A DNA stretch of 64,000 bases, taken from the NCBI GenBank assembly GCA_964635825.1, contig CAZWQJ010000001.1, forward strand, positions 12,404 to 76,403, in the 5' to 3' direction. This stretch comes from an uncultured Victivallales bacterium. GTDB taxonomy: Bacteria; Verrucomicrobiota; Kiritimatiellia; UBA8416; JAIOPI01. The notes under the pieces were generated by a model, which saw nothing but the letters and a program-made list of their open reading frames with translations, was not told the origin of the DNA and did not search any database. Of the stretch, positions 1 to 33,397 are shown in pieces (within the stretch, counting starts at the first letter, position 1; the number at the start of each line of letters is the position of its first letter). The position numbers were made by a program, and so were the translations under genes.

Positions 1-247
1 CACGATCTCCGGCACCAACAACGCCGTGGTGGTGGGCTTTGAGGCGATCCTGGGCGAGCCGGGTTCGGAGGAGCAGGTGCGGTTCTACACGCTGGAAAGC
101 GCCACGGGATTGGCCCGCGCTGCATGGCAGGGCGTGTCCGGCTACACGAATCTGCAGGGCTTGCAGGGTGACGTGCGTGTCACCAACCCCGCGACCCCGG
201 GGCCGACCTTCTATCGCGGTCACGTGTGGCTCGAACCGGTGCCGTGA
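1..247 (+). CDS. 3' end of a secreted protein gene (partial, continues upstream of the window). It ends with the FYR C-terminal module.
   Basis: Open frame from nt 2 to stop at 245-247. Tail ...VRFYTLESATGLARAAWQGVSGYTNLQGLQGDVRVTNPATPGPTFYRGHVWLEPVP matches the C-terminal module found in four other secreted proteins in this window. It is the only convincing + strand coding segment in the first 20 kb. Confidence 0.5.
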   Translation, partial: TISGTNNAVVVGFEAILGEPGSEEQVRFYTLESATGLARAAWQGVSGYTNLQGLQGDVRVTNPATPGPTFYRGHVWLEPVP

Positions 248-4549: not shown

Positions 4550-5442
4550 GGCGCCACCGCCTTCCGGCTTCCATCCGCCGGGTGGTCACGGAGCTCGGCT
4601 TCCAGTTCATCCATGCGGCGGAGTTCCTGCCGGGCCAGGAAGACGCGCTGCTCCCGCGGGTACTCCGCAATCAGCTTGCGATAGTACTCGCGCGCCAGCT
4701 CGAAATCCTGAGTCTCGAACTCGGCCACCGTCGCGATGCGCCAGTAGGCCCACGACTCATCCTTCACCGGGTTCAGCGGATCGTCCTCGAGTGTCTTCCA
4801 TGACTGGATGGTGGCGGCCAGAAGCTCATCCCGGCGGCCCAGCACCTTGCAGCAGTGCGCCCGCAGTTCATGCGCCGCGCTGCGCCAGGGGCTCGCAGGA
4901 TGCGCCGCGACAAACCGATCGAGCGCCTCCAGCACCGCGCGCGTCCGCTCCGCATCGGGCTGCCGGAGCTGCGCCGCCTGTTGAAAGAGGAAGGCTTCCT
5001 CCCCGGCGGAATGATGGGGAAACCGGTCGATCACGTCTTGGTAGGCGGCTACCAGCACGTCCAGCGCAGGATACTCCCCGCCGACAGGCAGGGCCTTCAT
5101 CCGTGCGAGCGCCAGCGCGCTCCACGCCGCCAAGTCGCTGGTCGGCGCCTGCGCCATGACCTCCCGGTAGAGCGAAGCGGCCTTCTCCGGATCCTCTCCG
5201 GGACGACGCAGGTTCCATGTCGTGGCCAGTCCGTACCGCGCGGCCAGTTGCGTGGGGCTGGACTCCGGCGCGCATGCCAGCGCGTCCTGGAAACTCCGCA
5301 CGGCCGATTGAAATTCGCCTAGGCGGTACTGGTCCCACCCCGTGGCGATAAGCGCTTCCGGCGCCAGCCGGTCCGCCGGTCCGGCGCAGCCCAGCAGCCC
5401 GCAGCACAGGCTGACGCCCCATGTCCGCGCCAACCGTTTCAT
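4546..5442 (-). CDS. TPR-like lipoprotein.
   Basis: Starts MKRLARTWGVSLCCGLLGCAGP, a lipobox L-L-G-C. Helical repeat-rich sequence. ATG at 5442 overlaps the stop of the upstream beta-helix gene by 4 nt (ATGA). The longer 624-aa ORF 4546..6420 is an artefactual N-terminal extension overlapping the beta-helix gene in another frame. Confidence 0.65.
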   Translation of the reverse strand: MKRLARTWGVSLCCGLLGCAGPADRLAPEALIATGWDQYRLGEFQSAVRSFQDALACAPESSPTQLAARYGLATTWNLRRPGEDPEKAASLYREVMAQAPTSDLAAWSALALARMKALPVGGEYPALDVLVAAYQDVIDRFPHHSAGEEAFLFQQAAQLRQPDAERTRAVLEALDRFVAAHPASPWRSAAHELRAHCCKVLGRRDELLAATIQSWKTLEDDPLNPVKDESWAYWRIATVAEFETQDFELAREYYRKLIAEYPREQRVFLARQELRRMDELEAELRDHPADGSRKAVAP

Positions 5443-7121
5443 GGCGGCGGCTCGCGGGGTGGCCCCGCCTCGTGCGCGCCAATGTCGTAGCCTGCACCCG
5501 TGGGTACCGGCAGGCCGAAGAAGTCGTGATCGCAGCGGGCACGGAGCACGCGCGCGGGATCGAGCCCCGCATCGATGGCGGGCGAGCCAGCCTGCAGGCG
5601 GTAGGCGCCGAGTGACGCCAACCGGTTCGGACGCCCCACCGTCCCGCCGCCGCCCGCCGCGGTCAGGTGCGGGTCCGCCAGCAGGCCCACCGGTTCTCCG
5701 GCCAGCATTTCCTGCCCGGTCGCCTGGCGCCAGGCATCGAGGGAGGAGAAGCCCTCCACGTCCACGGTCCCGCCACTGGCCCAGTACAGATTGCCCTGAA
5801 AGCGCGTGATCCCCGCCGGGGTCTTGTTCCAGCTCCACACGAGGGGGTGGTTGTTCGTCGTCACGATGATGTTGTTGAACACGCGCAAACCGGAGGCGTT
5901 GGGCTCCCATGGGGCAAGGAAGGCCGCCCCCACCGAGGTGTAGACGGTGTTGCCGTACACGCTGGCGTCTCGCAGCCCCACCGGTCCCGCCAACGACGAC
6001 AGCGTGATCGCCGCCATGCGCCGCGGGGATCCGGATGCATCGTTCTCGCTCACGTTGTAGCGCACCACGTTGTTCGACCAGGCCTCCGCACCGCTCTGGT
6101 AGAGCAAGTATCCGGCCCCATGATTGTCGTGGGAGTAACAGTACTGGATGACGGAGTCCGTGACGCCCATGTCGAAATCGAACCCGTCTCCGTCCATCTG
6201 CTGCGCCCGGTTGCGATAGGACTCGCAGTGCTGAATCGTCACCCGCTTCGAATGGTAGGCCCAGATGCCGACCGGCCCCGGATGCGCGGGTCCCTGGCCA
6301 CCGTTGTCGTGCGCCACGCAGTGCTCGATAAGCCCGTCTTCCACTCCGCCAAATACGAAACCGCTGCCGGATGGCTTCTTCATCTCGCTCGGGTCGCCGA
6401 GGTTGTGATGGAACCGACAATGTCGCACCACGAAGTCGCGCATGCCGCCCGCCGCCGGCGCGTAGGTCATCCCGCCCCCGTTCAAATTATGATGGAGATC
6501 GCAACCTTCGATCAGCACGTTACTGAATCCGTCGGACGGTCTTTCCCAACTGACCACCTGCAGTCCCTCGAAGAAGCCGGACACGTCGAGGTTGCGGAAC
6601 ACGAGCCTGGAGAATCGCCCCCCCTGCGCCATCGCATTCACGCCAAACGACTTGGGGTTGTTCATGCTCTGGCCCACCAGAATCAGGTTTTCGATCGTGA
6701 CGTCGCCCGCATTGTAGATCGTGACGCCACTCCTGTTGGCCGGAACCACTAGCTTCGCGCGGTTGACGGGATCGGATGTGATGGTGAGCGGCAGGCCGGC
6801 GGTGCCCCCCTTGCCAGGCTGTATGTCGATCCAATCCTGGAAGATAGCGCCAGCGGCCAGCATGATGACATCCCCCGGCCGCGCGCGGCTCAGGGCTGCC
6901 GCCATGGTTCGGAATGCGGTCGCCGGCGTCCGGCCATCGCCGCGGTCGTCCCCGTCAGGGCGGACGTGCATCGTGGGCGTCGGCGGAAGTTCCGCAGCCG
7001 GCGGGGACGGTTCCGCCGGCACACGAGCGGACACAGGCGCACTCGGTTGACGCTTCGTGCAGGACACGAGCCCCAGTGCGCAGGCCAGCGCTACCATCAT
7101 CACAACGCGCACAGGTGCCAT
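5439..7121 (-). CDS. Right-handed parallel beta-helix repeat lipoprotein (polysaccharide lyase/hydrolase-like).
   Basis: Signal peptide plus lipobox MAPVRVVMMVALACALGLVSC. Beta-helix signature blocks CVAHDNGGQGPAHPGPVGIW, DGDGFDFD and IQYCYSHDNHGAGYLLY are shared with three paralogs at 29325, 31675 and 35445. Confidence 0.8.
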   Translation of the reverse strand: MAPVRVVMMVALACALGLVSCTKRQPSAPVSARVPAEPSPPAAELPPTPTMHVRPDGDDRGDGRTPATAFRTMAAALSRARPGDVIMLAAGAIFQDWIDIQPGKGGTAGLPLTITSDPVNRAKLVVPANRSGVTIYNAGDVTIENLILVGQSMNNPKSFGVNAMAQGGRFSRLVFRNLDVSGFFEGLQVVSWERPSDGFSNVLIEGCDLHHNLNGGGMTYAPAAGGMRDFVVRHCRFHHNLGDPSEMKKPSGSGFVFGGVEDGLIEHCVAHDNGGQGPAHPGPVGIWAYHSKRVTIQHCESYRNRAQQMDGDGFDFDMGVTDSVIQYCYSHDNHGAGYLLYQSGAEAWSNNVVRYNVSENDASGSPRRMAAITLSSLAGPVGLRDASVYGNTVYTSVGAAFLAPWEPNASGLRVFNNIIVTTNNHPLVWSWNKTPAGITRFQGNLYWASGGTVDVEGFSSLDAWRQATGQEMLAGEPVGLLADPHLTAAGGGGTVGRPNRLASLGAYRLQAGSPAIDAGLDPARVLRARCDHDFFGLPVPTGAGYDIGAHEAGPPREPPP

Positions 7122-7142: not shown

Positions 7143-10100
7143 CTACCGCAGTTCGAGGCGGTAGAAACGCCGCGGCCACAGGACCGCATTGGTATCCGTG
7201 TACAAGTAGGTGCCCTCACCGGGCGGCACCTGTGTCGCCAGCCCGATCCAATTCCAAATACTGAAGCCCAGATTCGTGCACGCGTAGACGTCGCAGACCA
7301 TACCACTGGGCCCCGGCAACGCCATTCCAAACGCACCCCCCGGAGCGGTGGCGGCGGCCGCAATCGCGGGCGCGGCCGGGAGCACGATAATTTGCAGATC
7401 GTCGGCTGGCATGTTCCCATGGCCGTCGTCCACCGTCAGGCGCAGCACGTAGGTCCCCGGCAGGCTGAAGACCACCGTGGAGGCGAGCGCGTTCGAGTTT
7501 CCGAAGGTCACCGCGCCGGCGCCACTGAGCTTGGACCAGGCGCTGACGAGTGCATCGCCGTCTCCGTCGGTCGCGCTTCCCGCCAGGTGCGCCACGTCGG
7601 TGACGATGCGCACCTGGTCGGCGCCCGCGCTGATCACCGGCGCCACGTTGATGGCGGTGTTGGTGGTCAGCGCCAGCCACGCCTGGCCCATGCGCTCCCC
7701 GATGGTACGGATGCCGGCGTCGTCGAAATGCAGCGGCGCGTAGTACTGGTTCGTGATCACGTTCAAGCGCACCCCGGCCACCGCGGGCGCTTTGGTCAGT
7801 GCGTGATTAAGTGTCCGTGCCGTCACCCACTCGTGCGACAGCAGGGGCAGATCGGCCGTGTCGATCGTCCGGACGCGCTGCGGATCGTTTGCCGCCGCCG
7901 CGCCCTGGGCATCGCGCACGAGGCTGATGCCATTGGTGCTCCCCGTGTAGTAGATCCCGTAGTTCGAGTTTGTCCATAGGACCTGGTTGGGGAAGTTGGG
8001 GTAGTCGGCGGGATTCTGCCGGGAATCCGGCGGATTCCCGGGGCTGATCTTGGCGATAACGACCGGCAGGTTCGGAACCCCAAAATCCGCGCGGACGCGC
8101 GCAATCAGGTTTGTCAGGTTGGCGTAGTAGTCCGCGGCTCCCGAGGAGATGGCGTCGGACTCGCCCTGCAACCAGAAGAAGCCTGCGATCTCCGCTCCCG
8201 GCTTCTGCTTCAACGCCTCCGCCACCCATTGCTTCATGCCGTTGTAGCATCCGCTCGGGTTGTCGGGGTTCCAGTCGTCGGCCAGGTCCGTGCCGCCGGG
8301 CGCGTACTTGACGATGTTATAGATGCCGGTCGGGTTCGCCGCATGCACGACGTGTGCAACCATGAACTCCGGTCCGTACTCCTGCACCGGCTCGCCCGAA
8401 CTGAAGGACGTCGCATTCGCCCAGGTTTCGCCCGGATTCAGGCCGATGTACCAGAAGCTGGCGGACTTGTTGAAGTCCACCGGGCCGACACGGGTCCAAC
8501 CCGTGTAGCGCTGGCGCCAGTAGGCATACGGGTGCCAACTGCCGCCCGCGTAGGGCACGCCCCGCAGCGCCGCCCCCGCCTTGGACTGGCCATAGCCGGG
8601 CAGCCAGTGCCCGCCCTCATAGCGCGCGCCGTTGGTGGTCGTGGCTGTCGCCCATGTCAGTTGGTTGTAGCCCGGGAAATTCACGTAGACGTAGAGCCCA
8701 TAAGGATCCGGCGTGCCGCCGGGATCGGGCCCACTCGGGATGTTCCCGTCCGTATCGCTGGCGTTTGAATAGAACCCGTACACGTTGGGGATTTCCGCCT
8801 TCTGCCCCGCCGTCAGGTTGGAGGCCGTGTTCGGCGTGCCGTGGCCCTCCATGTTCGACTGTCCCGCAAAGATCAGGATCTTCTCGCCCGTGAACAACCG
8901 GACCGTGATCGGGACATCGCTTGTGACCACGTGGCCTCCAGGCCCGTCGGTCACCCGCAGCCGCAGCACATAGGTTCCGGTGACATTGGTACTGAAGGCC
9001 ACCCACGGAGTCAGCGCATTCGTGTCCGAGAACAGAGCCATGCCCGGGCCGCTCACCTGCGACCACGACACCGCAATCGGATCGCCGTCCGCATCCGCGG
9101 CGACGCCGGCGAGTTGCGTGACCGTGTCCAGGCCGATCGTCTGGCTGGCGCCGGCGCTAACGACCGGCGGCACGTTGGTGCCATCGCGATAGCCCCACAG
9201 CGAGAAGGCATCGACGCCGGTGTACCCCTGCCCCATCGCGAAGCAGGCGGCGGCCCAGAGCGCCCCGGCGGGTGCATTCGTCGCGAAGGCAAACGCCTGC
9301 CACGACCCGTAGTACTGCGTCACACGCGGGGTCATGACATCCTGCCGGACCAGTGCCCCCGCCCCGTTGTACCAGCGCACCTCCGCCAGCACATTGCTCC
9401 CCGGGTTCGACTCCGCGAAAGAGAACTGGTAACGGCGCCCGGCCACGACGGCGGCCCGTCGCGTCGGCGACGTCTCGAGGCTGGTCGTATTCGTGGGCGA
9501 CGGTTGGCCGGGATCCGGCTGCAACGCCGACGCGAACAGGGCCAGCGGGCCGGCATAGGTGGGAGGGTTTCCGCCGCCCGCGGTGTAGATGCTGTTGGAA
9601 ACCGATGTGTACGTGAAGGTGACATCCCACCCGGCCATGCTCGAGTCGGTCGTGGGGCCGCTGGAGGAATCGAGGTAGGCTCCGGGCGAGGCGTCGAAGC
9701 CTGGGTTCGTCAGCAGCAGGTTGGGTGTGGAGTCGAGCACGGTGATCGCCACGTCGTTGCTGGCGCTGGCGGCCCCGGCCGTTACGCCCAGGCGCAGCAC
9801 ATGCGAACCCGCGGCGCTGAAGGTTGCCGAGGCCGTGGGCGAGTTGCCGGGCACATACGCCACGGCCCCCGGCCCGCTCACCGTGGACCATGCATACGTC
9901 AGCGGGCGGTAGTAGTAGTCGAAGCCTGAACCCGCCAACCGCGCACCATCGCCCCGAAAGACCGTCTGCGCATGGCCGGCGCGGACAACGGGCGCCAGGC
10001 CGCCGCCGGCTCCGCCATTGCTGTTGTCCGCCATCGTAATCGAGAACCCGTCCACCTCCGTGTAACCGCGGGTGAACGTGAAGTACGCGGCGACCGAGTC

Positions 10101-10595
10101 GGCATTCGCCGGCGACGAGGCGCCGAACGAAAACCCCTGCCAGCCGGATGCCGCCGTGTAGGTGAATCCGTTGGTGCTCTGGCCCAGGTAGCGGCCCGCG
10201 CTGTCGTACCAGCGCATTCCCGCCACGACACCGCCGCCGCTGGGCTGATAGTGCATCCAGAACGAGAAGGTGCAGACGGTGCCGGGCTGAACCGGCGGCC
10301 GGGTCACCGGATCCGTTTCCAGCCAGAACGTGCCGCTGCTCACCGTCACACCGAACCCGTACGCCCCCGCCTGTGCGGGCGTCGACGGCCACCCCTCATT
10401 CTTGTTCGGGCTGGCGCCGGTCGGACTCGACCAGTAGCACTGCCACCCCGGAACAGAGTTCGTTCCCGGACCGGCGGGATAGCCGACACTGGTGTCGAAA
10501 CCGGGGTTGCTGTTATTCAGAAGGCTGACCGTCGCCGCGTGCGCGCCCACGCCGCACGCCAGCAAGATGCAAACCGCCCGTGTTGCTGTCTTCAT
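7143..10595 (-). CDS. Secreted 1150-aa multidomain carbohydrate esterase of the SASA/DUF303 (sialate-O-acetylesterase-like) family. It has CBM-like and PKD/Ig-like repeat modules and the FYR C-terminal module.
   Basis: Signal peptide MKTATRAVCILLACGVGAHA. SASA motifs ILIFAGQSNMEGHGT and FFWLQGESD. Repeated PKD-like modules (PPVVSAGASQ...WSQVSGPG...LRVTDG) and CBM-like blocks (MRWYDSAG, VRWYNGAG). Ends WPRRFYRLELR. Its ATG at 10593-10595 immediately follows the TGA of the upstream paralog in the same frame. Confidence 0.8.
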   Translation of the reverse strand: MKTATRAVCILLACGVGAHAATVSLLNNSNPGFDTSVGYPAGPGTNSVPGWQCYWSSPTGASPNKNEGWPSTPAQAGAYGFGVTVSSGTFWLETDPVTRPPVQPGTVCTFSFWMHYQPSGGGVVAGMRWYDSAGRYLGQSTNGFTYTAASGWQGFSFGASSPANADSVAAYFTFTRGYTEVDGFSITMADNSNGGAGGGLAPVVRAGHAQTVFRGDGARLAGSGFDYYYRPLTYAWSTVSGPGAVAYVPGNSPTASATFSAAGSHVLRLGVTAGAASASNDVAITVLDSTPNLLLTNPGFDASPGAYLDSSSGPTTDSSMAGWDVTFTYTSVSNSIYTAGGGNPPTYAGPLALFASALQPDPGQPSPTNTTSLETSPTRRAAVVAGRRYQFSFAESNPGSNVLAEVRWYNGAGALVRQDVMTPRVTQYYGSWQAFAFATNAPAGALWAAACFAMGQGYTGVDAFSLWGYRDGTNVPPVVSAGASQTIGLDTVTQLAGVAADADGDPIAVSWSQVSGPGMALFSDTNALTPWVAFSTNVTGTYVLRLRVTDGPGGHVVTSDVPITVRLFTGEKILIFAGQSNMEGHGTPNTASNLTAGQKAEIPNVYGFYSNASDTDGNIPSGPDPGGTPDPYGLYVYVNFPGYNQLTWATATTTNGARYEGGHWLPGYGQSKAGAALRGVPYAGGSWHPYAYWRQRYTGWTRVGPVDFNKSASFWYIGLNPGETWANATSFSSGEPVQEYGPEFMVAHVVHAANPTGIYNIVKYAPGGTDLADDWNPDNPSGCYNGMKQWVAEALKQKPGAEIAGFFWLQGESDAISSGAADYYANLTNLIARVRADFGVPNLPVVIAKISPGNPPDSRQNPADYPNFPNQVLWTNSNYGIYYTGSTNGISLVRDAQGAAAANDPQRVRTIDTADLPLLSHEWVTARTLNHALTKAPAVAGVRLNVITNQYYAPLHFDDAGIRTIGERMGQAWLALTTNTAINVAPVISAGADQVRIVTDVAHLAGSATDGDGDALVSAWSKLSGAGAVTFGNSNALASTVVFSLPGTYVLRLTVDDGHGNMPADDLQIIVLPAAPAIAAAATAPGGAFGMALPGPSGMVCDVYACTNLGFSIWNWIGLATQVPPGEGTYLYTDTNAVLWPRRFYRLELR

Positions 10596-13500
10596 TCACC
10601 GCTTCTGCAGTTTGTAGAACCGGCGCGGCCAGCTCACCGTGTTCGGATCCGTGAACGAGAACTCGCCCGAGGCCGGTGGCGATTGCGTCGCAACGCCGAC
10701 GTAGGTCCAGTTGGTCTGGGTGAGGTCCGGCAAGGCATAGACCTCATACATGGCGTTACTGGAGCCGGAGCCGCTGAATCCGAAGCTGAAACGCCCGCCC
10801 GCCAGCAGACTCGCGCTGTCGATCAGCGGCCGGGTATTGTCGTCGAGACTCAGCCATGCCTGCGCCATCCGCGTGCCAATGGCCTGAATGGCGTCATCGC
10901 CAAAATGCACTGGAGCCCAGTTCGCGTTTGTGACGACGTTGAAGTGAACCGCGTTGTTCCGGACGTCACCGTTCAAGTTGCGGTTGTGTGCGGAGGCCTG
11001 ATGCCACTCGAAGGTCAGCAACCGGAAGTCGTCGGCGTTCACCGTCATGACCCCCGGGATGGTGCTGGCGGCATCCAGCTGGGCCTTTCGGACCTTGTAG
11101 ATGCCGTTCGTGCCTCCGAACCACACGACGCCGTAGTTGCTGTTCGTCCAATACCGTACATCCGGACCTGGGTCTTGCGGGTTGCCGGGATGGATCTGGC
11201 CGATGACCACGGGGAGCGTGGGGACCGCGAAATCGGCGCGCACCCTCCCGATCAGGTTCGTCAGATCCTGGTAGTACCGGCTGCCGGACCCGCAGTCGGA
11301 CTCGCCCTGCAGCCAGAAGAAGCCGGCCAACTGGGCGCCCGGTCGTTCCGCCAGCGCGCACTCCACCCACTCGCTCATTCCCGCATAGCTCCCGCTCTGC
11401 CGATCCGGATTCCAGTTGCCGGCGAGGCTCGTGCCGCCCGGGGCATACTTCACGATCCAGAACTTCTCGTTCGGGCGGCTTCCATGCAGGGTCCACGCCG
11501 CCGTCAGTTCGGGCCCGTAGACCATGTTCGGCTCGCCCGAGGTGAATGTCCACGCATTCGCCCACGGTTCGCCGGGATTGAGACCGGCGGGCCAGTACAG
11601 TAGGTTCGTCGTCCCCTTGGCGATGGTGAAGGGTTTCCGCGTGGGGTCGGTGGGGCTGGTCCGGCTGTACCCCACCCAGTTGGTCTTGAAGAACGCATAG
11701 GGTTGATAGGTTCCGCCGGCCAGGTAGTAGCCGTTGGTGACGCCACCGTAGACGATGTTGGTTTTCATCGAGGCCCAGTGATAGAGGACACCGTCATCGT
11801 AGACACGATCACCTTTGGTTTCCGGCAACCCGCCAATCCAGTCCATCTCGTTGGCGTAGAATCCGTAGACGTTCGTGATCTCGTTGCGCAGATGCGCCGG
11901 CAGATTGGTGATCGTATTCGGCGTTCCGTGGCCTTCCATGTTCGACTGGCCGCAGAAGACCAACACCCGCTCGCCGGTCGGGTTGACGATGTGCACCTTG
12001 ACCTCGCGGGCGAGAACGTGACCGTGCTGGTCGTCCACCGTCAGGCGGAGCACATAGTCGCCTAACGCACCGAAGGACACCCCGGTGCGCAACGCGCCGG
12101 CATTCGCGAAGGTGACGGTGCCGGGCCCGCTGACCTTCGACCAGGCGATCAGCAGCACATCGAGGGGATCGCCGTCCGACGCCAGTCCCGCCAGCACGAT
12201 CGGAGCCCCCATCACACGCGTCATCTCGCCCCCGGCGTAGACCAGCGGAGGTTCATTGCCGGTGGACAGGGAAATCGAGAATGCATCCACCATGCCGAAG
12301 CCGCCCGTCGAGGGATAGTAGACCCCGGCCCATGCCGCATTCGCGGGCGAGACGAACTTGGCGGACGTCGGCGCGTAGTTCGGGTATCCGGCGCCCGTCG
12401 GCACAAACGAGCCGGAACTGATGTACACGCCCGCACTCGTGAACCAGCGGACTTCCGCCTCGCACCCATCGGGCACCGCCGACTGCTGCAGGGCCAGCTT
12501 GTAGACGGATCCCGGCGACGCAATCGGAGCGCGACAGTTGGGTGCGGTCTCGATGCTGACCACTCCACCCGCGTAGCAGTCCATGTACAGCCCATTGTTC
12601 CCGCCGTTGGATTGCAGGCCGACGTTGTTCCCGAGCTTCGGGTTGACCGTCGGAACCGTGAACGTCACCACCCAGCCCGGCATGGAGTAGTCCGTCTGTC
12701 CGGACGATTCGATGTAGATCGGCGCGTTCGTGGCCTCGAAGCCGCAGTTGTACCCCAGCAGATTCCCCAGCGGGTCCAGGTACCCGACATACACATCGCT
12801 GAACACGGAGTACGTTCCGTCCGATGCCGTCAGGCGCAACACATAGGTGCCGATCGTGCTGAGCGTCACGGCGGAGTTCAACGCGTTCGGATTCGCCAGG
12901 GTCGCGCTGCCGGGGCCATCAATGACGGACCAGGTGTACGTGAGCGCATCCCCATTGGGATCGGACACCGCCCCTGCCAGCGTCACCCGGTTGGTGAAGC
13001 CCGCGATCTGCGGGCCGGCATACACCACGGGCGGGTTGTTGGTCCGGATCGCGAAGTTGTCCAGTTCCACATAGCCGGCTACGTCTTTCGCCTGGCCGGA
13101 TGAGTACGAAATGTTCCCGACGGCGTAGTAGTAGGCGGAGGCGGTCGCGGCGCCGGGCGGAGAATACGCATTCAGGTAAAAGGGTTGGAAGTTCCCGCTC
13201 AGGGCATCGGCGTAGAACGAGTTGGTGCTCGCGCCGATCAAGGCGCCCCCGCTGTCATACCAGCGAATGCCTTCCACCTGGGTCTTCATCGCGTACTTCA
13301 TGGCGAAGGAGAGCGTGTAATACGTGTTGGGCGTGACGGGTGCGCGCGCGTCCGGGAGGGTTTCGAGCCACATCGTCCCGGTCGCGCTCAGGCCGAGGGC
13401 ATTGGTGCCGTCGGCCGGACTGGGATAAGCCGTCGCCGAGCCCGCACAGTAGGCGTTGTTGTTCGTGGGCGAATCGCCGTTCGGCTGCGTGAGAACCAGT

Positions 13501-14522
13501 TGCCAGCCGGGGATGGAACTGCTATCCGCAACCGGCCCCGCCACCCACAGGGAGCGCGGCACCGACTCGAACCCGGCGTTGTTTCCCAGCAGGTTTCCGG
13601 AGGTGCTGATGAAGACGTCGCTCGCCACCGTGTAGGTTCCATCCCGGACGGTCAGCCGCAACTGGTAGACCCCGATGGCGCTGAATCCCGTGGCCGTGGT
13701 GTTCAGCGCGCCGGGGCTCGCGAAGTTCACGGTGGCGGGGCCGCTCACCTGCGACCAGGCGTAGGTCAGGGTGTCGCCGTTGGGATCCGTCGCCGAACCC
13801 GCGAGCGAAATGGTGGCGCCCACCGGCTTCACCTGGGTGGCCCCCGCATTGACCACCGGCGGGTTGTTCGTACTCAGGCTGAAGTTGTCCAGTTCCACGT
13901 ACCCGGCCACGAATCGCCCCTGTCCCGACGACCAGGAGATATCGCCAATTCCGTTGTAGTAGGCCGAGGCCTTCGATGCGCCGGCCGGGGCCGTCGCCGT
14001 CACCACGTTGGTTTGCCAGCCCATGGTGGCGGCATACGCATTGGTGCTGCGCCCGACCAAGGTACCGGCGCCGTTGTACCAGCCGATGCCCGCCACCTGG
14101 CTGCGCAGGCCGTAGTTCAGGGCGAACTGCATCGTGTATACCCGGCCGGCGGAGATGGTCGGCCGCGACGCCGCCAGGGTCTCGAGCGACATGGCGCCGG
14201 TGGCGCTGATCCCGAGGGCATTGGTCCCTTCCGCCGCCGGGGTCGCGCGGTACACATTGTTGTTCGTCGGCGCGCTGCCCTGCGCCTGGGTGAAGACGAT
14301 CTGCCAGCCGGGGATGGAGCTGCTGTCGCTGACCGGCCCTGTCACCCACAGAGCGGACGTCACCGACTCAAACCCGGGATCATTCGCCAGCAGGTTCGCC
14401 CCATGCGCGGCGGACCCGACAACGAGCAGTGCCAGCCACGCCGGTCCCAGGCGCGTGCCGATGCGTGCAGCGCCGGAACCTTGTGCGAATCGGATACGTG
14501 ATCCCGTGCGAGCGGCGGGCAT
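10596..14522 (-). CDS. Secreted ~1300-aa SASA-family carbohydrate esterase, a tandem paralog of 7143..10595.
   Basis: Motifs VLVFCGQSNMEGHGT and FFWLQGESD. Same CBM-like and PKD-like modular N-terminus. Ends WPRRFYKLQKR. The ATG at 14522 is preceded by GGAGG at 7-nt spacing. The longest ORF extends to 14540 but lacks an SD. Confidence 0.8.
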   Translation of the reverse strand: MPAARTGSRIRFAQGSGAARIGTRLGPAWLALLVVGSAAHGANLLANDPGFESVTSALWVTGPVSDSSSIPGWQIVFTQAQGSAPTNNNVYRATPAAEGTNALGISATGAMSLETLAASRPTISAGRVYTMQFALNYGLRSQVAGIGWYNGAGTLVGRSTNAYAATMGWQTNVVTATAPAGASKASAYYNGIGDISWSSGQGRFVAGYVELDNFSLSTNNPPVVNAGATQVKPVGATISLAGSATDPNGDTLTYAWSQVSGPATVNFASPGALNTTATGFSAIGVYQLRLTVRDGTYTVASDVFISTSGNLLGNNAGFESVPRSLWVAGPVADSSSIPGWQLVLTQPNGDSPTNNNAYCAGSATAYPSPADGTNALGLSATGTMWLETLPDARAPVTPNTYYTLSFAMKYAMKTQVEGIRWYDSGGALIGASTNSFYADALSGNFQPFYLNAYSPPGAATASAYYYAVGNISYSSGQAKDVAGYVELDNFAIRTNNPPVVYAGPQIAGFTNRVTLAGAVSDPNGDALTYTWSVIDGPGSATLANPNALNSAVTLSTIGTYVLRLTASDGTYSVFSDVYVGYLDPLGNLLGYNCGFEATNAPIYIESSGQTDYSMPGWVVTFTVPTVNPKLGNNVGLQSNGGNNGLYMDCYAGGVVSIETAPNCRAPIASPGSVYKLALQQSAVPDGCEAEVRWFTSAGVYISSGSFVPTGAGYPNYAPTSAKFVSPANAAWAGVYYPSTGGFGMVDAFSISLSTGNEPPLVYAGGEMTRVMGAPIVLAGLASDGDPLDVLLIAWSKVSGPGTVTFANAGALRTGVSFGALGDYVLRLTVDDQHGHVLAREVKVHIVNPTGERVLVFCGQSNMEGHGTPNTITNLPAHLRNEITNVYGFYANEMDWIGGLPETKGDRVYDDGVLYHWASMKTNIVYGGVTNGYYLAGGTYQPYAFFKTNWVGYSRTSPTDPTRKPFTIAKGTTNLLYWPAGLNPGEPWANAWTFTSGEPNMVYGPELTAAWTLHGSRPNEKFWIVKYAPGGTSLAGNWNPDRQSGSYAGMSEWVECALAERPGAQLAGFFWLQGESDCGSGSRYYQDLTNLIGRVRADFAVPTLPVVIGQIHPGNPQDPGPDVRYWTNSNYGVVWFGGTNGIYKVRKAQLDAASTIPGVMTVNADDFRLLTFEWHQASAHNRNLNGDVRNNAVHFNVVTNANWAPVHFGDDAIQAIGTRMAQAWLSLDDNTRPLIDSASLLAGGRFSFGFSGSGSSNAMYEVYALPDLTQTNWTYVGVATQSPPASGEFSFTDPNTVSWPRRFYKLQKR

Positions 14523-14570
14523 GAACAACCTCCAAACCATCTGCCATTCATGCTAGCGCCGGCGGTGCAC

Positions 14571-14629: not shown

Positions 14630-17600
14630 TCACTGCAACCGTGCACTGCCGCGGAAGGCGCGTGGCCCCGGGCCATTGGTCACGAGAAGCAGGGGGAACC
14701 CGCTGGCGGGCACATTCGTCAAGCCTGGCAGGCCGCCCCAGCCGCCGGTGAGCAGGTTCGTGGTTTCCTCCAGACGGTAGAAGCGTGAGCGCCCTGCGTG
14801 GTACGTCGCGGTCGCAATGCGGGTGGGGAGCCGGATCCACGCCTGTTCATTAGACCATACCAGGTCGAGCCGGAGGAAGTCGGCCCCGTTCGTGGGATCG
14901 GTGCCGGCGGTGTACTCGGCCCCGTTGGCCAGACCGTCTCCATCCCAATCGTCGTTCGGATCCCCGGCCGGCGCGTTGGTGCTGCCGAAATAGGCGCGCT
15001 CCCAGTTGTCCGGCACCCCATCGCCATCGCCATCGTCAAGGGCAGGCACCCAGTCGGCCACGGTGCCGTACTGGGAGAAAGTGGCCGCATTCATCAGCAT
15101 GGCATACTCGGCCCGGCTCCAGGCGGCCGGGCGCACCACCGCGGAAAGCCTCAACTCATCGAGCCGGCCGGAGAAGGGGCTGCCCCCCCCCTGGCGGCGC
15201 CCCAGGACCGGCGCGAGTGCCGGGCGAAAGTCCGGCACATCGCCCAGTCGCCGGCGCGGGCCGTTGTCGACGCTCCCATACGCCACGCCGTTGCTGAGCA
15301 CGACCGTCACCAGTTGCCACCCATTGGTGCGGTAGGGGTCGATCGCCCAGTCGGCCGTGCCCAGGTTCGCCTGCCACTTGGCCACGCGTGGATTAATATT
15401 CATACTCACGTAGAAATTCATCCCCGTACTCTGCGCGCCGAACGGGGTGCCGCCGTATGTTTCCGCCGCCACGTTCGCCCAGAAGCTGAGGGTGAAGTGG
15501 TTGCGGGCTCCGACGTACCAGGCCAGCGGAACATGAGGATCGACGACGGCATTGGTGTCCGCGAACTGCAGTCCGCCCGCCACCAACCCCGCCGCCGCCA
15601 CCGCACCGGCGTTCGCCACCGCACCGTAGTAGCCCGAAGCATCGACCAGGTCCGGTTCCAGGTGCCAGACCCCGACGAAGTCATCCCGCCAGACTGAGCC
15701 ATCGGTGGTATAGGGCGGCGGCGAGGTGGCCGCCGGGTTTCCCCAGATCGCCCGCAGACAGGCGCCATTTGTGAGCAACGCCAGGCGCACCCAGAACTGC
15801 GAGAACCCATTCGTGTCCCAGCGTTGCGGCTCATAGACCAGCAGTCTTCCCGCATCATCCAGGAACCGCAGGCTGGCCCAACTGCCGCCGACGTCCGCGT
15901 ACGAGAAACCCGCCATGTTGGTACTCACCGACACCAGCACCGGGAACCCGGCAAGGTCGTCGGCCTCCGTGAATCCCGGCAGGCAGATCGACACCTGCCG
16001 GGTCCAGTTGGTGTACGCACTCGTCCGGAACGATCCCGTCGCCGGCGCCCAGGCCATCGGCGTCCCCCGGCGCGCAAAGGCGCGGTACCAGTAGGTCCAA
16101 TTCGGATTCAGCGGCCCCACCCTGGCGGAAAACACTCCCCCGCTTTGCGTGCCACACGTCTCCACATGCGCCCAGCGTTCGGCATTGGTGCCGCCATCTG
16201 CTTCACCCCAACACAGGCCCACATCGGCCACGCCGGCGCCCAGCAGGGTCCCGCGAAGCGTGGCCGCATCCGCGCTGAACTCCTCAACCGGCAGGTTGTC
16301 CACCGCCATGGCATCGATCCGCACCACGCCTGACGTGGCGACCCCGGACGCATCGCGCAGTTCCGCACGCAGCGCGAGCCGTGCCGGTGCTGTTAGCGCA
16401 ACCGAACAGGTGTAGGGCGCGGATGTGGCCGTGCCCAGGAGGTTGGAGCCGTCCAGGAAGGCAACCTGTTCCACCGGACCCGCCACCTGCGATTCATCCA
16501 GCCGCGCACGCAGGATCACCTCGGACGGCACGAAGTAAACCGCACCGGCACGGGGCTCGGACAGCGCCACCTTGGCGCCGGGCAGGCCCGGCGTGGGGAA
16601 AAGGGCCGCCAGCCAGTTGGCGGGGTCATTGCCGCTTTGTCCCGCCCACTGCCGTTGTAGCGACATGCCGGTACCATCCGCTTCCGCCGGCCAGGGATCG
16701 CGATCGAAGTAGAGGACCTCGTCCACGATGACCCAGGAGACGGCTTCGTTCTCCACGTCCGGCAACAGCGGGCGTTCGAGCGCCACGCGTTCCCCGTGGT
16801 TGCCGAGCTGCCCCTGCCAGGGGCCCAGAAGTCGGATCTGGCCGTTCGTGAGCCCGTGCTGCTGAAGGAACGCCCCGCAGGCCGCCGCGTCCGCCGCCGG
16901 GTCGAAACCCACCAGAACCAGCCGCTCCGCCGCCGCCATCACCAGGTTGCTCGGAAACGTGAACGTCACAGCCCCATCCAGCCGCCAGGGGCCCGCTTCC
17001 CCCATCAGAATCACCGCATTCGTTCGCGGGTTCAGCAGCTCGACGAATTCGTCCCGCGTATTATCGTCGGGTTTCGATACCGTGGGCGCAGGGTGGTACA
17101 TGAGCTCGTCGATGACGACATCCTGCAGCGGCAGCCCGTTGGCGCCGCCCGGCGTCCGAAGTTGCGCGTACCACCACGCCCCCCCATCGCCATGGCGCCC
17201 CAGCGAACACTCGTTCTCCTGCGCCTTGTAACGCACGCTGTCGGCCACGCGGTCCGCCGCGGTCCCGGGCAGGTGGGAGAGGTAGAGCGACTCCCCTCCC
17301 TTGTTCAGGCCGAAGCCGGCCGTGATCGGAGCGTGGAATCCGCTGACTTCATCGAACACGCGCCACTCGCCGCCATTCAACGCGGGCGCCGCGGGAAGGG
17401 CCCACTTCTTCAGGTTCGAGGCACTGTCGCTCAGGTACCAGTGCTCGAGGGACACGGGCGCCCCGCCCGCATGGTAGATCTCGATTTGATCGTTGGAATC
17501 GTATTCCGGATGCCCCGCATTCGTGTAGTCCGTGTGCGCGATGATCTCGTTGAGGACCACGTCGCGCGGGGGCGGCGGGTCGGGTTGGCCGGGAGATCCC

Positions 17601-20600
17601 CCGCGAAAGGCGCTCGCCCGCCAGTTGCCGCCGTAGTCCAGCCGGCCGTCGTCCTGGTGCGTCATGGCCAGCGGCACCAGCGAGTGCCCGGCCCCATCCA
17701 CGGACGCGGGCCAGCCACGCCCGTCGCCGTACGTGCAGTCGGCAACGACGGCCTCGTCGCCGCGGCTGACCAGGGTCAGTGAGTCGCCGGCGTTGGCCAG
17801 CGCGCCCGTGTAGACCCCGGCCACCAGCGCGGCGGCCCCGCCGTAGCGGTTGGTGAAGGCGGAGAGGCTGCGCACGAGCACGGCATAGCCATCCGGCGGC
17901 AGCACGGGTGTCGCGGATTCCCGGAAATCGAAGCTGATGCCGCCCATCAGCAGCAACCCGCTGAGGCTCGCGGCGGAGGCGCCGCCGTTGTGGAGCTCCA
18001 GGAATTCCGAGTCGCCGTCGGCCGGGGCGTACATGACCTCGCTGATCGAAAGCGCGCCACCATACGCATTGGTGTACCCAACATAGGTGACGGCATCCAC
18101 CACGACGCCCGCGCGGTTGCGTAATTCAAGCGCCTCGCCGCGCGGCGAAAGGCGTCCCTTGAAGTTGCCCTGCACATAGCGGTTCTCATTCGTGGTGGGA
18201 CTGACCGCACGGCGGCGAAATTCCCGCACCGATGGCGACACGAAGAGGCTCTGGCCGGGAGCCAGCACCGTGCCCGCGTAGAACGTGTGCGACACCCCGC
18301 CGCCCAGCGTCCACCCCGAAATGTCCAGGTCGTACGCATTCGTGTTGATCACTTCGACATACTGCTGATCCTCCGCGCCATTCCCCGGCAGGAACTCGAT
18401 GGCGCCGAAGCGCAGCCGCGCATCGGGCGGCTGGCTGTCGGGAATCTCGCCCCCATTCGCCACACTCAGCGTGGTGCCCAAGTAGTTCCGACGCCCCGGA
18501 AGGTACTGGTCGACGATCCGCACCACGCCCTGGCGCATCGTGTCCCCGTTTCCCCAGGTGCCCCACTTGGCCCGGTCGAGATCGGCATCCGAAATCCCGG
18601 GGTCCGGATCGATCTGCTCCGCCAGCGCCGCCAACCGGGGCTCGAAGTACAGGGCATTGGTGGGCGAGCCGGCCGGCTTCAGGTACTCATCCACCAGCGT
18701 GCGCACCCGCCGCATCACCATCGCCCGCAGCTCGGGATGCTGGTAGACCACCTGGTAGTAGGGGTTGTTCGCAGTTGCGTAGATGATGCTGCTCGCCGTG
18801 TAGATCGTATCGTCGAAGTAGCCGCCGGTCCAGACGTGCCCATACGTCAGGTCCACGTCCTGCGGCAGGATGGTCCAGATGCCGCCCCCATCCGTATCGC
18901 AGTAGAGGTAGTAATTCTTATGACCGTGGTCGGTGTTGTTCACGATCGCCTGCATGGCCAGGTAATGGACCGTGCGGGGCAACTCCGTGTGGTCGTACGC
19001 ATAGCGCATGGCGGCGGCACCGGCGGGATTCGACAGGCCGGCGATCAGGGCCTGCAGGTCGCTGTTGGCTTCATCCCGGCGGGTCTTCTTCTCCACGCCC
19101 ACCATTGCGGACGTCAGGCCGTTGTACAGCTTGTAGAGCGCCCCATCGGGGTCCAGCCCCACGCGGTCCAGGAACACGTCATCCGCGTCCTCCACCATGT
19201 CGGCCACGCTGAAGAAGGCCCCGTTCTGCTGGACCCGCACGGGAAACCCGAAATGCGCGGGGTGCCCCGAGTCCGCAAAGAAGCCGTAGGCCAGCGTGTT
19301 GCGGCACTTCGACTTGTCGGCCCAGTTGGTCAGCAGATCGATGTCCTTGGCGGGCTTGGCTCCTTCCCGGTACGCAAACCGTGCGCCTCGGTTGAAGTCG
19401 AAGTTGTAGCTGCCCTTGATGAAACCCAGCGTGCTTTGCCCGTGCTGGGTCACCTGCACGTTGTCGTAGAAGCGGTCCAGGAACCAGACACTGCAGCGGG
19501 TGCCCAGCGCGGTGTCGGCCGACGACGGGCTCTGAATGAACCAGTGAACCACCGGCAGCCGCGACACGATCGCCGTATCCAGCGCCACCGTCCCGCAGTA
19601 CTGCGGCGAATCGAACGGATCGAGATACGCCGGCAACCGCGTGGACTGGCCATGGCTGTCCACCGCCTCGAAGCGCCAGCGCAGCATCTGACCCGCAGCC
19701 ACGTTCGTCGTCGCCAGCGTTCCGGAGTAGACCCCGTCCCCGCCCGCCGCGTCGCCGTCCACCCCGCTGTCATTCAGGTTCAAAATCGTCTCTCCATCGA
19801 ACATCCGGCGCGAGCAGAGGCGTACGGCGCTCACCGGGTACAGCGTGGCCTCGACGCGCGCGGTCACCACAAGAGACGCGCCCGGCACAAAGGCGGGCGC
19901 ATAGTCTGTCACCGCCCGCAGGCCGGGACCGAGGACGGGAAGTCCGCCGCCATTGATCGATGCGGGTGTGGGTGTGGTGAGGTACGCGGGGGCAAAGGCG
20001 GGCGGATTGGTGCCGACATCGCCCGCCAGCACCGGCGCCATCAGAAGGTCCATGCTGTGCGGCGACACATTCAGGACCTGGATGGCCAGGATGTTGGTTC
20101 CCACCACCAACGGTCCGGAGGGGTTGGCAACCGGGAATATCTCCCATGCAGTCGCGGCGTGCGGTGCGGTCGCGTACGAGTCCCACGCGGGCGTGGTCGG
20201 CGCATTCGTGCGGGCCACCTCCGAGCCATTGATCCAGGCCACGAAGCCGTCGTTGTAGCGCGCCTGAACCTGGAGCGCGCTCACGCCGGACACGGCGTTG
20301 AGCACGAACGGCTGCCGCAGGTAGAGACTGGGCCCGGCCATCTGCGCGCTCACGTCGGTCGCAATGAACGGCTGCGCGTTGGTGGTGGAGTCGAACCCCA
20401 GCCCCGTCGCACCGGCCGACCAACCGCTGTCGTCGAATTCGGGCAGCCGCCAGGAGGTCCCCAGCGCGTCATCCGCGGGCGAGTGGTATCGCGCCGCGGC
20501 CCCCGCGGCGATCACCGGCTCGATGACCGGGTTCAGCACCAGCCCGTAGGCGATGTCCTCCGCCTGGGGGAGATAGGTCGGTGCATACCGCGTGGCGACC

Positions 20601-29324: not shown

Positions 29325-31667
29325 TCAGAAGCCCCAGCGTACCCGGTAGAAGCCGCCATGCGTGGCGGCATTGGTGGGCGTCATCGCCAACAACCCATTT
29401 GTTCCGGCCACCGGTTCCGGGCCGGTCAGTGTCTCCCACGAAGCCGTTGGCGCCATTGCCGCCGTGAACTCCACCCAATACCGGCCCACATTCGTCCCCG
29501 GCCAGGCCAACGTTAGTCCGCCGGCACCCCAGTGAAGACCCGCTATCACGGGCGGCGGCGCGGAGACGAGCTCGGCAGCGCCCACGTCCAGTCCTCCGAG
29601 CTGCGGAACCGCGGTGCCGAAAAAATCGCTTGGGCCTGGCGTCAGTCCAAACAGCGCCGCCAGATCCAACCCGGCATCGATGAGCGGCGAGTTCGTCCTC
29701 GGCTGGTAGACCGCAAGCGTCTGCAGCGCCCGCGGGTTGCCGTTTGTTCCGGCGCTGCCCGCCAACGTGAGCAGCGGATCGGCACAGAAGCCCACGTTGG
29801 TGCCGTTGAGCGTCTCCTGTCCTGTTGCCGCACGCCAGGCATCGAGCGATGCGTAGCCGGCGATGCGGTGCGTGGCGCCGCCGGTCCAGTAGCAGTTTCC
29901 CTGAAAGCGCGCCTGCTGAGGCGTCGGCGAGCTCGCGGGCGACTGGGCCCACCACATCAGCGCATTCGTGCCCCCGGCCCAGAACACGTTGTTCCGCAGC
30001 GCGACACCCACCATGTTGCCGATGTAGAACCCAACCACGGGGCTGACGCGGCTGTAGATCGTGTTGCCGTAGACGTGGCTGTTCATCAGGGCCGCCGCGG
30101 CGCCGCCCGAGTAGAAGTGCAGCGCCCCCATCCGTCCGCCATAGGCGTCGTTCTCGCTGATGTTGTAGCGCACGACGTTGTTGGTCCACCAGTGTCCGGC
30201 AACACCATCCGTGTTCAGCAAGTACCCCGCGCCGAAGTTGTCGTGCGCATAACAGTACTGGATCGTCGAGTCGGTGGTGTTCAGGTCCAGGTCGAAGCCG
30301 TCCCCGTCCTGATTCGTGGCCCGTGTGTTGTAGGCCTCGCAGGATTGAATGGTGATCCGCCTGCAGTGGTAGGTCATGAAGCCGACCGGCCCGGCATCCG
30401 CCGGACCCGCGCCTCCATTATCGTGGGCCACGCAGCGCTCGACCACGCCGTCGACGGTGCCGCCAAGCACCAGGCCGAACCCGGACGGGTCGAACCAGGC
30501 GGCGGGATCCCCAGGGTTGTGGCTGAAGACGCTGTCCCGCACGACGATGTTGCTGACCCCTCCAATGGACGTGGCGGAGGTCTCGAAGCCCGCGTGCAGA
30601 TTGTAGTACCCCACGCAGTTCTCCACCCGCACATCGGAGCAGACACTTCCCGCGCCGGCGGCATAGATGTGGAAGCCCTCGCGAAAACCGGACACCGCCA
30701 CATGGCGCAGGGTCAACCCCGCGACCGTCCCGCCGCTGACGCCCGCCGCCACGCCCTCCTGCGTCGTGAACGCCGTCCCCATCCCGACGACGACCAGGTT
30801 CTCCAGCGTGATGTGCCCCACGTTATAGAGCAAAACGCCCGGTTGCTGCGCATTGGTCTGCACGAGGGTCGCCCGATTCGTGGGGTCGGACGTGAGCACC
30901 ACGGGATACCCTGCGGCACCGCCCGTCCCGATGCTGACGTTCTCCCGGAACACCGCGCCCCCCTGCAGATGAATCGTCACCCCCGGCGCCACCGCCTGCG
31001 ACGCCCGCGCCAGCGTCCGCCATGGCTGCCCCAACGTGCCGGCGTTGGTGTCGTTGCCGCTGGAGCTCACGTAGTAATCCACTTGCGAATAGGTGTTGCT
31101 GCCGTCCCCGGAGCCCGGCTCGAGCACAACCTTGTCCAGCGCCAGCGGCCCGACATTGAGCGTGAAGGAAGCCGCCGCGGTCACCGCACTCGCCGGGGCA
31201 TTCGTCCGGAACTGAAACGATTGAAACTGCGGCGACAAGCCGTCGACACTGGGCGCGAACGTGTCCTGCCCCAGTAGCGTTCCCGCCTGGTCGTACCAGC
31301 GGATCCCGGCGCGGAAACCGCTCGCCGGGTAGTCCGCCAGAAACGACAGCGTGTACAGGTGGCCCCCCGCCACGGGGGCACGCGCATCGACGCTCGTTTG
31401 CAGCGAAAGCGGTCCGCCGGCCGCATAGAGATAGCGCGCGCCGTCAATGCCGGTGGCCGGGGACAGCGTGTAGAGCCCGGCGTAGTCGAAGACCCCGCCG
31501 CTCGTGAAGCTGATGGCCCAGCCCGGAATCGGGATCCAGGCGGAGGTTTCGTCCACGTAGCCGTTGGTCGGGGTCTCGAAGCTCGTGTTGACGGTCAGCA
31601 GATTCGCAGCCCTGGCGCCGCTCACCGCGAGTAGCAGCATCAGCAAGACCGTCTTCCCGTTTGTCAT
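29325..31667 (-). CDS. Secreted 780-aa protein: N-terminal CBM-like domain, parallel beta-helix domain, and the FYR C-terminal module.
   Basis: Start MTNGKTVLLMLLLAVSGARA at 31667. The longer ORF to 31823 would overlap the upstream gene's end. Has the CBM-like IRWYDQAG block shared with the SASA proteins. Beta-helix blocks CVAHDNGGAGPADAGPVGFM and IQYCYAHDNFGAGYLL. Tail ...YWVEFTAAMAPTASWETLTGPEP...GGFYRVRWGF. Confidence 0.8.
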   Translation of the reverse strand: MTNGKTVLLMLLLAVSGARAANLLTVNTSFETPTNGYVDETSAWIPIPGWAISFTSGGVFDYAGLYTLSPATGIDGARYLYAAGGPLSLQTSVDARAPVAGGHLYTLSFLADYPASGFRAGIRWYDQAGTLLGQDTFAPSVDGLSPQFQSFQFRTNAPASAVTAAASFTLNVGPLALDKVVLEPGSGDGSNTYSQVDYYVSSSGNDTNAGTLGQPWRTLARASQAVAPGVTIHLQGGAVFRENVSIGTGGAAGYPVVLTSDPTNRATLVQTNAQQPGVLLYNVGHITLENLVVVGMGTAFTTQEGVAAGVSGGTVAGLTLRHVAVSGFREGFHIYAAGAGSVCSDVRVENCVGYYNLHAGFETSATSIGGVSNIVVRDSVFSHNPGDPAAWFDPSGFGLVLGGTVDGVVERCVAHDNGGAGPADAGPVGFMTYHCRRITIQSCEAYNTRATNQDGDGFDLDLNTTDSTIQYCYAHDNFGAGYLLNTDGVAGHWWTNNVVRYNISENDAYGGRMGALHFYSGGAAAALMNSHVYGNTIYSRVSPVVGFYIGNMVGVALRNNVFWAGGTNALMWWAQSPASSPTPQQARFQGNCYWTGGATHRIAGYASLDAWRAATGQETLNGTNVGFCADPLLTLAGSAGTNGNPRALQTLAVYQPRTNSPLIDAGLDLAALFGLTPGPSDFFGTAVPQLGGLDVGAAELVSAPPPVIAGLHWGAGGLTLAWPGTNVGRYWVEFTAAMAPTASWETLTGPEPVAGTNGLLAMTPTNAATHGGFYRVRWGF

Positions 31668-31674
31668 GGAGAGC

Positions 31675-33249: not shown

Positions 33250-33397
33250 GCGAACGGCCTCCGTCGCCGGCGACTCTACTTCGCCGTCGCGCTGGCCTGG
33301 TTCGAGTTCGGGCTCTCGCCGCCCGCGTTGACTATGGCCACGTCCTCCCATATCGCCAACAATCCGGGCTCCAGTTTACCGCGCGCGGTCACCCCCT

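Follow-up and report, generated by a model that had tools for sequence, protein, structure and literature searches.

Why should several exported proteins with unrelated bodies end in the same way? This question is raised by a stretch of 64,000 nucleotides from an uncultured Victivallales bacterium (assembly GCA_964635825.1, contig CAZWQJ010000001.1), referred to as the window in the following, in which an initial annotation based on the sequence had noticed a common tail with a closing FYR motif at the C-terminus of five proteins. These are two SASA esterases, a right-handed beta-helix protein with a part resembling a carbohydrate-binding module (CBM), a giant LTD-CotH protein and the product of a partial gene at the start of the window. 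We find that this tail belongs to a large domain family, which is absent from the Pfam and NCBIfam copies searched and has no solved relative. As the module is almost always located at the very end of the protein, a role in surface anchoring or sorting is probable.

Translation of the window confirmed all five tails (Table 1), and the interval 7143-7310 corresponds to the final 55 codons plus the stop codon of the gene for SASA esterase 1. The similarity of the tails goes well beyond chance. Two hidden Markov models (HMMs), built only from sequences outside of the window that had been gathered by profile searches (n = 113 for subfamily 1 and n = 17 for subfamily 2), were run against the 760 six-frame open reading frames (ORFs) of the window and recovered the tails with the scores listed in Table 1. 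A sixth copy was not found among these ORFs with either HMM, the next-best ORF reaching an E-value of 0.11 with the subfamily-1 model. In addition, hhalign matches the two subfamily profiles to each other along their final 48 columns with a probability of 97.8% (E = 1.2e-12). Based on the HMM matches and this link between the profiles, the five tails are homologous at the sequence level and fall into two subfamilies. Members of subfamily 2 usually have TSP3-type repeats as a lead-in (D.DGDG...EY..GTDPTN....F.R), and they are marked by a long G.GY.GL loop and an end of the type RFYRLKVRLQ. In the LTD-CotH copy, strands 2 and 3 are separated by a long loop and the final motif is degenerate, and the arrangement of TSP3 repeat followed by module is also present in P0060, P0272, P0275-P0280, P0282, P0288 and P0289. 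A word-indexed protein search with the five tails gave three matches and improved after addition of two outside sequences and with a relaxed E-value; it returned short fragments only.

The family is very large. When 1.84 billion cluster representatives were searched with a profile of seven sequences, 10,360 of them matched at E <= 1e-3 and 384 reached E <= 1e-10, so the module is not restricted to recent paralogs, and many of the 10,360 representatives have 2-10 matched stretches. Scans with Pfam (2025 copy) and NCBIfam (2026) revealed no family on the five tails at E <= 0.1 and none over the module in consensus-like members at E <= 1. The alternative considered at first, that the tail matches a well-characterised domain which always occurs internally, finds no counterpart in these libraries. 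Foldseek did not detect anything in the PDB at E <= 1e-3. Among the PDB chains there was also no relative by sequence, the best being 4zy9 (a glucanase/chitosanase) with an E-value of 0.01 over 53 profile positions only. A kinship with CBM32/discoidin domains was rejected, since the best match covers a part of the CBM32 module and is not significant (E = 0.01).

The roughly 55 residues assigned to the tail in the beginning are too short. Matches of the HMMs start about 25 residues further upstream, which gives a unit of 78-82 residues, and both the HMM span and the AlphaFold2 model include two further upstream beta-strands. For the tail of esterase 1, AlphaFold2 (alignment of 54 sequences) predicted six strands at residues 8-11, 17-23, 29-34, 45-50, 56-62 and 72-77 with a mean predicted local distance difference test (pLDDT) score of 91.4 and a predicted template modelling (pTM) score of 0.78. 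The LTD-CotH tail is predicted with a pLDDT of 85.8 and six strands in the same order. According to these models, the module is a complete, independently folding and non-catalytic beta-sandwich of six strands that resembles fibronectin type III (FN3) domains. In the consensus G.f.L.l.G.pG.tY.vE.tTNL....W.pl.T.t....G.fqFTDtNA.n.pqRFYRLk..P, which is directly followed by the stop codon, RFYRL forms the sixth and final strand and the conserved Trp marks the start of the fourth strand, not an FN3 B strand as assumed initially. That the chain stops at its last strand holds true: the protein ends 2-7 residues past the sixth strand, and a seventh strand is therefore predicted to be absent. By strand order in the models, the six strands would match A to F of the seven-stranded FN3 sandwich (ABE / C'CFG), with G missing.

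This likeness to FN3 is not reflected in the sequence. Pfam fn3 (PF00041) never matches the module, the five tails or consensus-like members, and its matches cover a separate N-terminal domain; in many small carriers a true FN3 domain is located immediately before the module. A comparison by hhalign with the FN3 domains of the same proteins yielded a probability of 0.1%, and homology to canonical FN3 was therefore rejected at the sequence level. The module also differs from fn3 by having one strand fewer in the models and by its confinement to the C-terminal block. One could assume that the six-stranded fold is incomplete and that the terminal copy accepts a strand from an outer-membrane anchor or another subunit, in the manner of strand complementation in chaperone-usher and type V pilins. 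It is in line with this idea that both models have six strands with the chain ending right after the sixth, and that within arrays a pseudo-G strand could be provided in cis by the Pro-rich stretch behind RFYRL.. However, the isolated domain folds at a pLDDT of 91 in AlphaFold2, so that no missing strand is evidently needed. An usher, a chaperone or a donor-strand motif was not seen and the Pfam matches of the window ORFs contain no assembly genes. We consider strand complementation highly improbable.

To count the module independently of its position, we used a degenerate DNA motif for [F/Y]TDTNA-x5-RFYR. It occurs once in the window (7159-7202, esterase 1; 0 expected by chance) and in at least 117 stretches of contigs from a set with one genome per species. 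Of the 118 matches listed, 115 have a stop codon 2-7 residues behind RFYR, and the remaining three carry one additional copy of the module there. A similar picture emerged for the top hits of the protein search that were re-detected by HMM, 138 of 145 having the last copy at most 6 residues away from the protein end. In both sets, the 145 top hits and the 118 genomic matches listed, the module precedes no other C-terminal element.

Nevertheless, the notion of a simple C-terminal signal is weakened by the fact that the module also occurs internally, in back-to-back arrays of 2-10 copies with a median spacing of one residue. The FYR motif is kept in 202 of 239 internal copies, and the last copy scores only 3 bits above the internal ones, even though only terminal copies had served to build the HMM. 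The consensus of internal copies is identical to that of terminal ones and the conservation per column is equal, which indicates that selection acts equally on both. Since two copies from the same protein share only about half of their residues (median identity 50%, compared with 29% between proteins; only 11% of the pairs within a protein reach 80%), most arrays do not represent recent duplications. The final residue is Pro in 55% of the carriers and matches the Pro-rich junction between copies.

Table 1. Copies of the C-terminal module in the window and the repeat preceding one of them (bits and E-values of the two outside-only HMMs; n.s., not significant).
Feature	Position	Strand	Gene	Subfamily	Subfamily-1 HMM	Subfamily-2 HMM	End of protein or further details
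Module, SASA esterase 1, C-terminus	7146..7385	-	7143-10595, residues about 1071-1150	1	61.4, 3e-18	n.s.	ends ...YTDTNAVLWPRRFYRLELR, stop
Module, SASA esterase 2, C-terminus	10599..10838	-	10596-14540, residues about 1235-1314	1	53.7, 8e-16	n.s.	ends ...FTDPNTVSWPRRFYKLQKR, stop
Module, LTD-CotH-LamG giant, C-terminus	14633..14878	-	14630-20983	2	7.6 (domain E-value 0.19)	33, 2e-9	...RSRFYRLEETTNLLTGGW...RAFRGSARLQ, stop
Bacterial TSP3 repeat immediately upstream of the module in LTD-CotH	14888..14947	-	residues 2013-2032				Pfam TSP3_bac, 3e-6
Module, CBM-like/right-handed beta-helix protein, C-terminus	29328..29570	-	29325-31667 (public call), longest ORF to 31823		39.2, 3e-11	17.2, 1.5e-4	...RYWVEFTAAMAPTASWETL...GGFYRVRWGF, stop; terminal part given as ...THGGFYRVRWGF, stop
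Module, partial gene cut by the window start	2..244	+	stop codon 245-247	2	27.6, 1e-7	70, 5e-21	...RFYTLESATGLARAAWQGV...TFYRGHVWLEPVP, stop

A strict position at the protein end is reminiscent of the C-terminal domain (CTD) of type IX secretion systems (T9SS), and the module might be a comparable export or sorting signal: a lineage-specific machinery would recognise the beta-sandwich at the end of periplasmic cargo, move the cargo across the outer membrane, and possibly cleave the module and attach the cargo to the surface. The T9SS CTD is described as a conserved C-terminal beta-sandwich that serves as export signal (PMC4804311), its fold is a 3+4 seven-strand immunoglobulin (Ig)-like sandwich (PMC11285876) and the T9SS is presented as a system of Bacteroidota (PMC10994853). 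The module shares with the CTD the small Ig-like beta-sandwich of about 80 residues, the extreme C-terminal location on many unrelated proteins with signal peptides and the limitation to one lineage, which is the distribution a lineage-specific machine would give. Furthermore, a module that never stands before another C-terminal element does not coexist with an anchor that must itself be C-terminal. In contrast to the CTD, it is predicted to have six strands, is found in Verrucomicrobiota instead of Bacteroidota and breaks the single-copy rule with its common tandem arrays, in which the internal copies are conserved like the terminal one. It is not known to have a translocon or sortase or to be cleaved, and no candidate machinery was identified here. 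Membership in the T9SS CTD family was rejected, as whole-library scans of Pfam and NCBIfam gave no model covering the module; the curated CTD profiles, which we take to be Por_Secre_tail PF18962, TIGR04183 and TIGR04131, are presumably within the scanned libraries. On balance, an export signal of this type is the main competitor of the anchoring explanation given below, although rather unlikely. We also regard as rather unlikely a role of the module as recognition domain in a pathway specific to Verrucomicrobiota or the PVC (Planctomycetota-Verrucomicrobiota-Chlamydiota) group, which would move Sec-exported proteins across the outer membrane or attach them to it.

Sorting signals of the transmembrane type such as PEP-CTERM, LPXTG, GlyGly-CTERM and MYXO-CTERM occupy the same position on many unrelated surface proteins (Haft, bioRxiv 10.1101/2023.06.07.544157). 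They consist of a motif, a hydrophobic helix and a basic cluster within about 25-35 residues, whereas the module is a soluble beta-sandwich of 80 residues that lacks a hydrophobic helix. This type of signal was rejected for the tails, which have no hydrophobic helix, are predicted to be all-beta and remain unmatched by the sorting-signal models of NCBIfam.

The proteins carrying the module were characterized by their N-termini and partner domains. As suggested by the initial annotation, the bodies of the window carriers are unrelated: Pfam assigns SASA and PKD to the esterases, LTD, CotH, Laminin_G_3 and TSP3 to the giant protein and Beta_helix to the beta-helix protein. All four complete window proteins start with a signal-peptide-like N-terminus, and the same applies to 71 of 89 complete ORFs with a hydrophobic N-terminus of this kind by a crude hydrophobicity measure. 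The start of the beta-helix protein is Met53 (31667), MTNGKTVLLMLLLAVSGARA, as in the identical public protein P0154; the longest ORF (29325-31823, minus strand) begins 52 codons upstream of it, and a signal peptide is present only with the Met53 start. For esterase 1, the public gene call begins 10 codons inside the ATG ORF. Partner domains in 82 carriers comprise fn3 (37 carriers), Kelch, Rax2, RCC1, Ig, DUF4082, pro-kumamolisin, LTD, MBG, FG-GAP and apiosidase, to which the window carriers add SASA and beta-helix. Most of the 37 fn3 carriers belong to one family of about 178 residues, which is composed of a signal peptide, FN3 and the module.

The module could also be an ordinary FN3-like spacer, a stalk or a CBM-like substrate-binding domain without any targeting function, with the C-terminal bias resulting from duplication or shuffling of 3' modules. 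The generic FN3/Ig sandwich fold, the back-to-back arrays, which are also found in other bacterial Ig-like rods, and the presence on enzymes acting on glycans, which often have CBMs at their C-terminus, are compatible with this explanation, as is the weak and not significant local resemblance to CBM32/discoidin mentioned above. For spacers, however, it would be unusual to keep to the final block of the protein in more than 95% of instances. The sequence, polar loop motifs included, is highly conserved across unrelated carriers and across orders. Many carriers are not enzymes at all, such as the small proteins with signal peptide, FN3 and module and the Kelch and RCC1 proteins. We regard a role as mere spacer or substrate-binding domain as rather unlikely.

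With regard to taxonomy, the record labels of the motif loci are, among the matches listed, overwhelmingly Verrucomicrobiota (Limisphaerales, Pedosphaera, "Verrucomicrobiae/-iia", subdivision 3), with a minority of few Akkermansia, Kiritimatiellia and Phycisphaerales. Unexpected labels among these matches (Bifidobacteriaceae, Acidoferrum, Limnocylindria and Binatia) are regarded as doubtful. The genomes labelled "uncultured Bifidobacteriaceae" or "Bifidobacterium" (L003, L010, L039, L062, L066, L067, L097, L100, L109, L111, L115 and L116) are metagenome-assembled genomes (MAGs) from third-party co-assemblies, and their carriers are near-identical in type to proteins of Verrucomicrobiae MAGs. 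Labels of the Bifidobacteriaceae/Bifidobacterium type are probably wrong, and the same doubt applies to the other three. For the window, the PATR-rich gene content and the distribution of the family likewise point to Verrucomicrobiota, and genes identical to its own were met on metagenome contigs only. The motif had no match in 2.9 million viral contigs, hence there is no sign of its use by phages.

The explanation we prefer, with a probability of roughly 40%, is that of a non-catalytic C-terminal module for non-covalent surface anchoring or docking. After Sec export, the module would anchor the protein non-covalently at the cell surface by binding to a component of the cell envelope or to a dedicated receptor and would thereby keep the N-terminal part, an enzyme or adhesin, exposed on the cell. 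The conserved polar loops (NG turn, TTNL and TDTNA), which by analogy with FN3 topology would lie at the pole opposite to both chain ends, are the putative binding site, and tandem copies may add avidity or reach. Conservation of the internal copies, multivalent arrays and conserved polar loops fit a binding module better than an export signal. Dockerin, SLH, GW and choline-binding repeats are similar in that they are conserved non-catalytic modules on many unrelated exported proteins, usually terminal and often repeated for avidity, but they have different folds and are mainly found in Gram-positive bacteria. Within the window, the module would keep the two SASA esterases, the beta-helix enzyme and the LTD-CotH protein at the surface beside a gene cluster for glycan degradation.

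Several points weigh against surface anchoring or docking. A binding module need not end within 7 residues of the protein end, and a rule as strict as this is rather a trait of sorting signals. The clustering of the loops at one pole is deduced from FN3 topology. Two other exported beta-helix enzymes of the window (5442-7121 and 31675-33351) have no module, which implies that it is not generally required by exported enzymes. The census itself is biased, as multi-copy proteins are over-represented in the list of the top 150 proteins, the DNA motif preferentially detects subfamily 1 and the genome count is a lower bound. Finally, literature searches did not find a published description of the module. 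Considering the comparison with known systems, we infer that the family is a lineage-specific C-terminal domain with an Ig/FN3-like fold and a putative targeting function.

Additional information comes from the PATR proteins, none of which was thought to carry the module. This is correct for the window, but in other organisms a PATR-type end segment (F.NLPEG...F.I.Y.G....V.LT) is followed by the module (P0002, P0004, P0008, P0023 and P0039). Three PATR proteins of the window share a short tail, G(L/V)LM(S/V)VR plus stop codon (25284-25307, 41065-41088 and 48145-48168, minus strand), which comes after a conserved F.(N/G)LPEG...F.I.Y... segment and matches no nameable sorting signal. As the same PATR segment is followed either by the module or by the short tail, both tails occupy one position, and this equivalence lends a small degree of support to both targeting readings, anchoring as well as export.

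The genomic surroundings provide some further observations. The window (positions 1-64000, locus L001) resembles a glycan-utilisation cluster with Pfam matches to an ABC permease, a solute-binding protein, a TPR protein, beta-helix proteins and the two SASA esterases. Public gene calls on the identical contig also include a GDSL lipase, a polysaccharide deacetylase, DUF4886, a GH2 beta-galactosidase and an L-arabinose isomerase, and giant PATR / Big_1 / invasin-D3 adhesin-like genes extend over about 22 kb (41065-62823). A repeat of about 170 residues is found in the N-terminal halves of three carriers, with two copies in esterase 1, three in esterase 2 and one in the beta-helix protein (7146-10595, 10599-14540 and 29328-31667, minus strand). 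It starts with (A/G)NLL.N.GFE...(I/M)PGW, contains (I/V)RWY(D/N).(A/G)G and is followed by a PKD domain after each copy in both esterases. No Pfam family matches the repeat above threshold, apart from which there is a weak HpiC1-like match in esterase 2 (E = 1e-4); judged by its sequence, it is probably an undescribed module of the carbohydrate-binding type.

Residues 401-426 of the LTD-CotH protein (14633-20983, minus strand) show a sub-threshold match to the NCBIfam family "choice-of-anchor X" (19.3 bits, cutoff 25). Members of choice-of-anchor families typically end in the sorting signal of their own lineage, and the LTD-CotH protein with this match ends in the FYR module. Limisphaerales-type MAGs abound in the proteins of about 178 residues with signal peptide, canonical FN3 and one module (34 loci within L006-L117, e.g., L009:5846-6379). 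A response regulator is located next to them in 28 of the 34 loci, mostly on the opposite strand, and 12 loci share a kinase-like ORF with a length of about 530 residues. This adjacent two-component system is their only conserved neighbour and uninformative on secretion.

Verrucomicrobiota are abundant in soil, peat, freshwater and gut. The way in which their numerous enzymes for glycan degradation and their giant adhesin-like proteins are displayed or released is poorly understood. If the module were only a structural FN3-like repeat, the gain would be a new domain family and a cleaner annotation of its carriers. If it were the recognition domain of a dedicated pathway, it would correspond in function to the T9SS CTD of Bacteroidota, the carrier count would define the surface and secreted proteome of the lineage and phylogenetic profiling would reveal the machinery. 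The module is useful as an annotation marker and as a predictor of extracytoplasmic, probably surface-associated proteins. It also offers a handle for finding the partner, be it a receptor, a translocon or an envelope ligand, and thereby makes surface display in Verrucomicrobiota testable.

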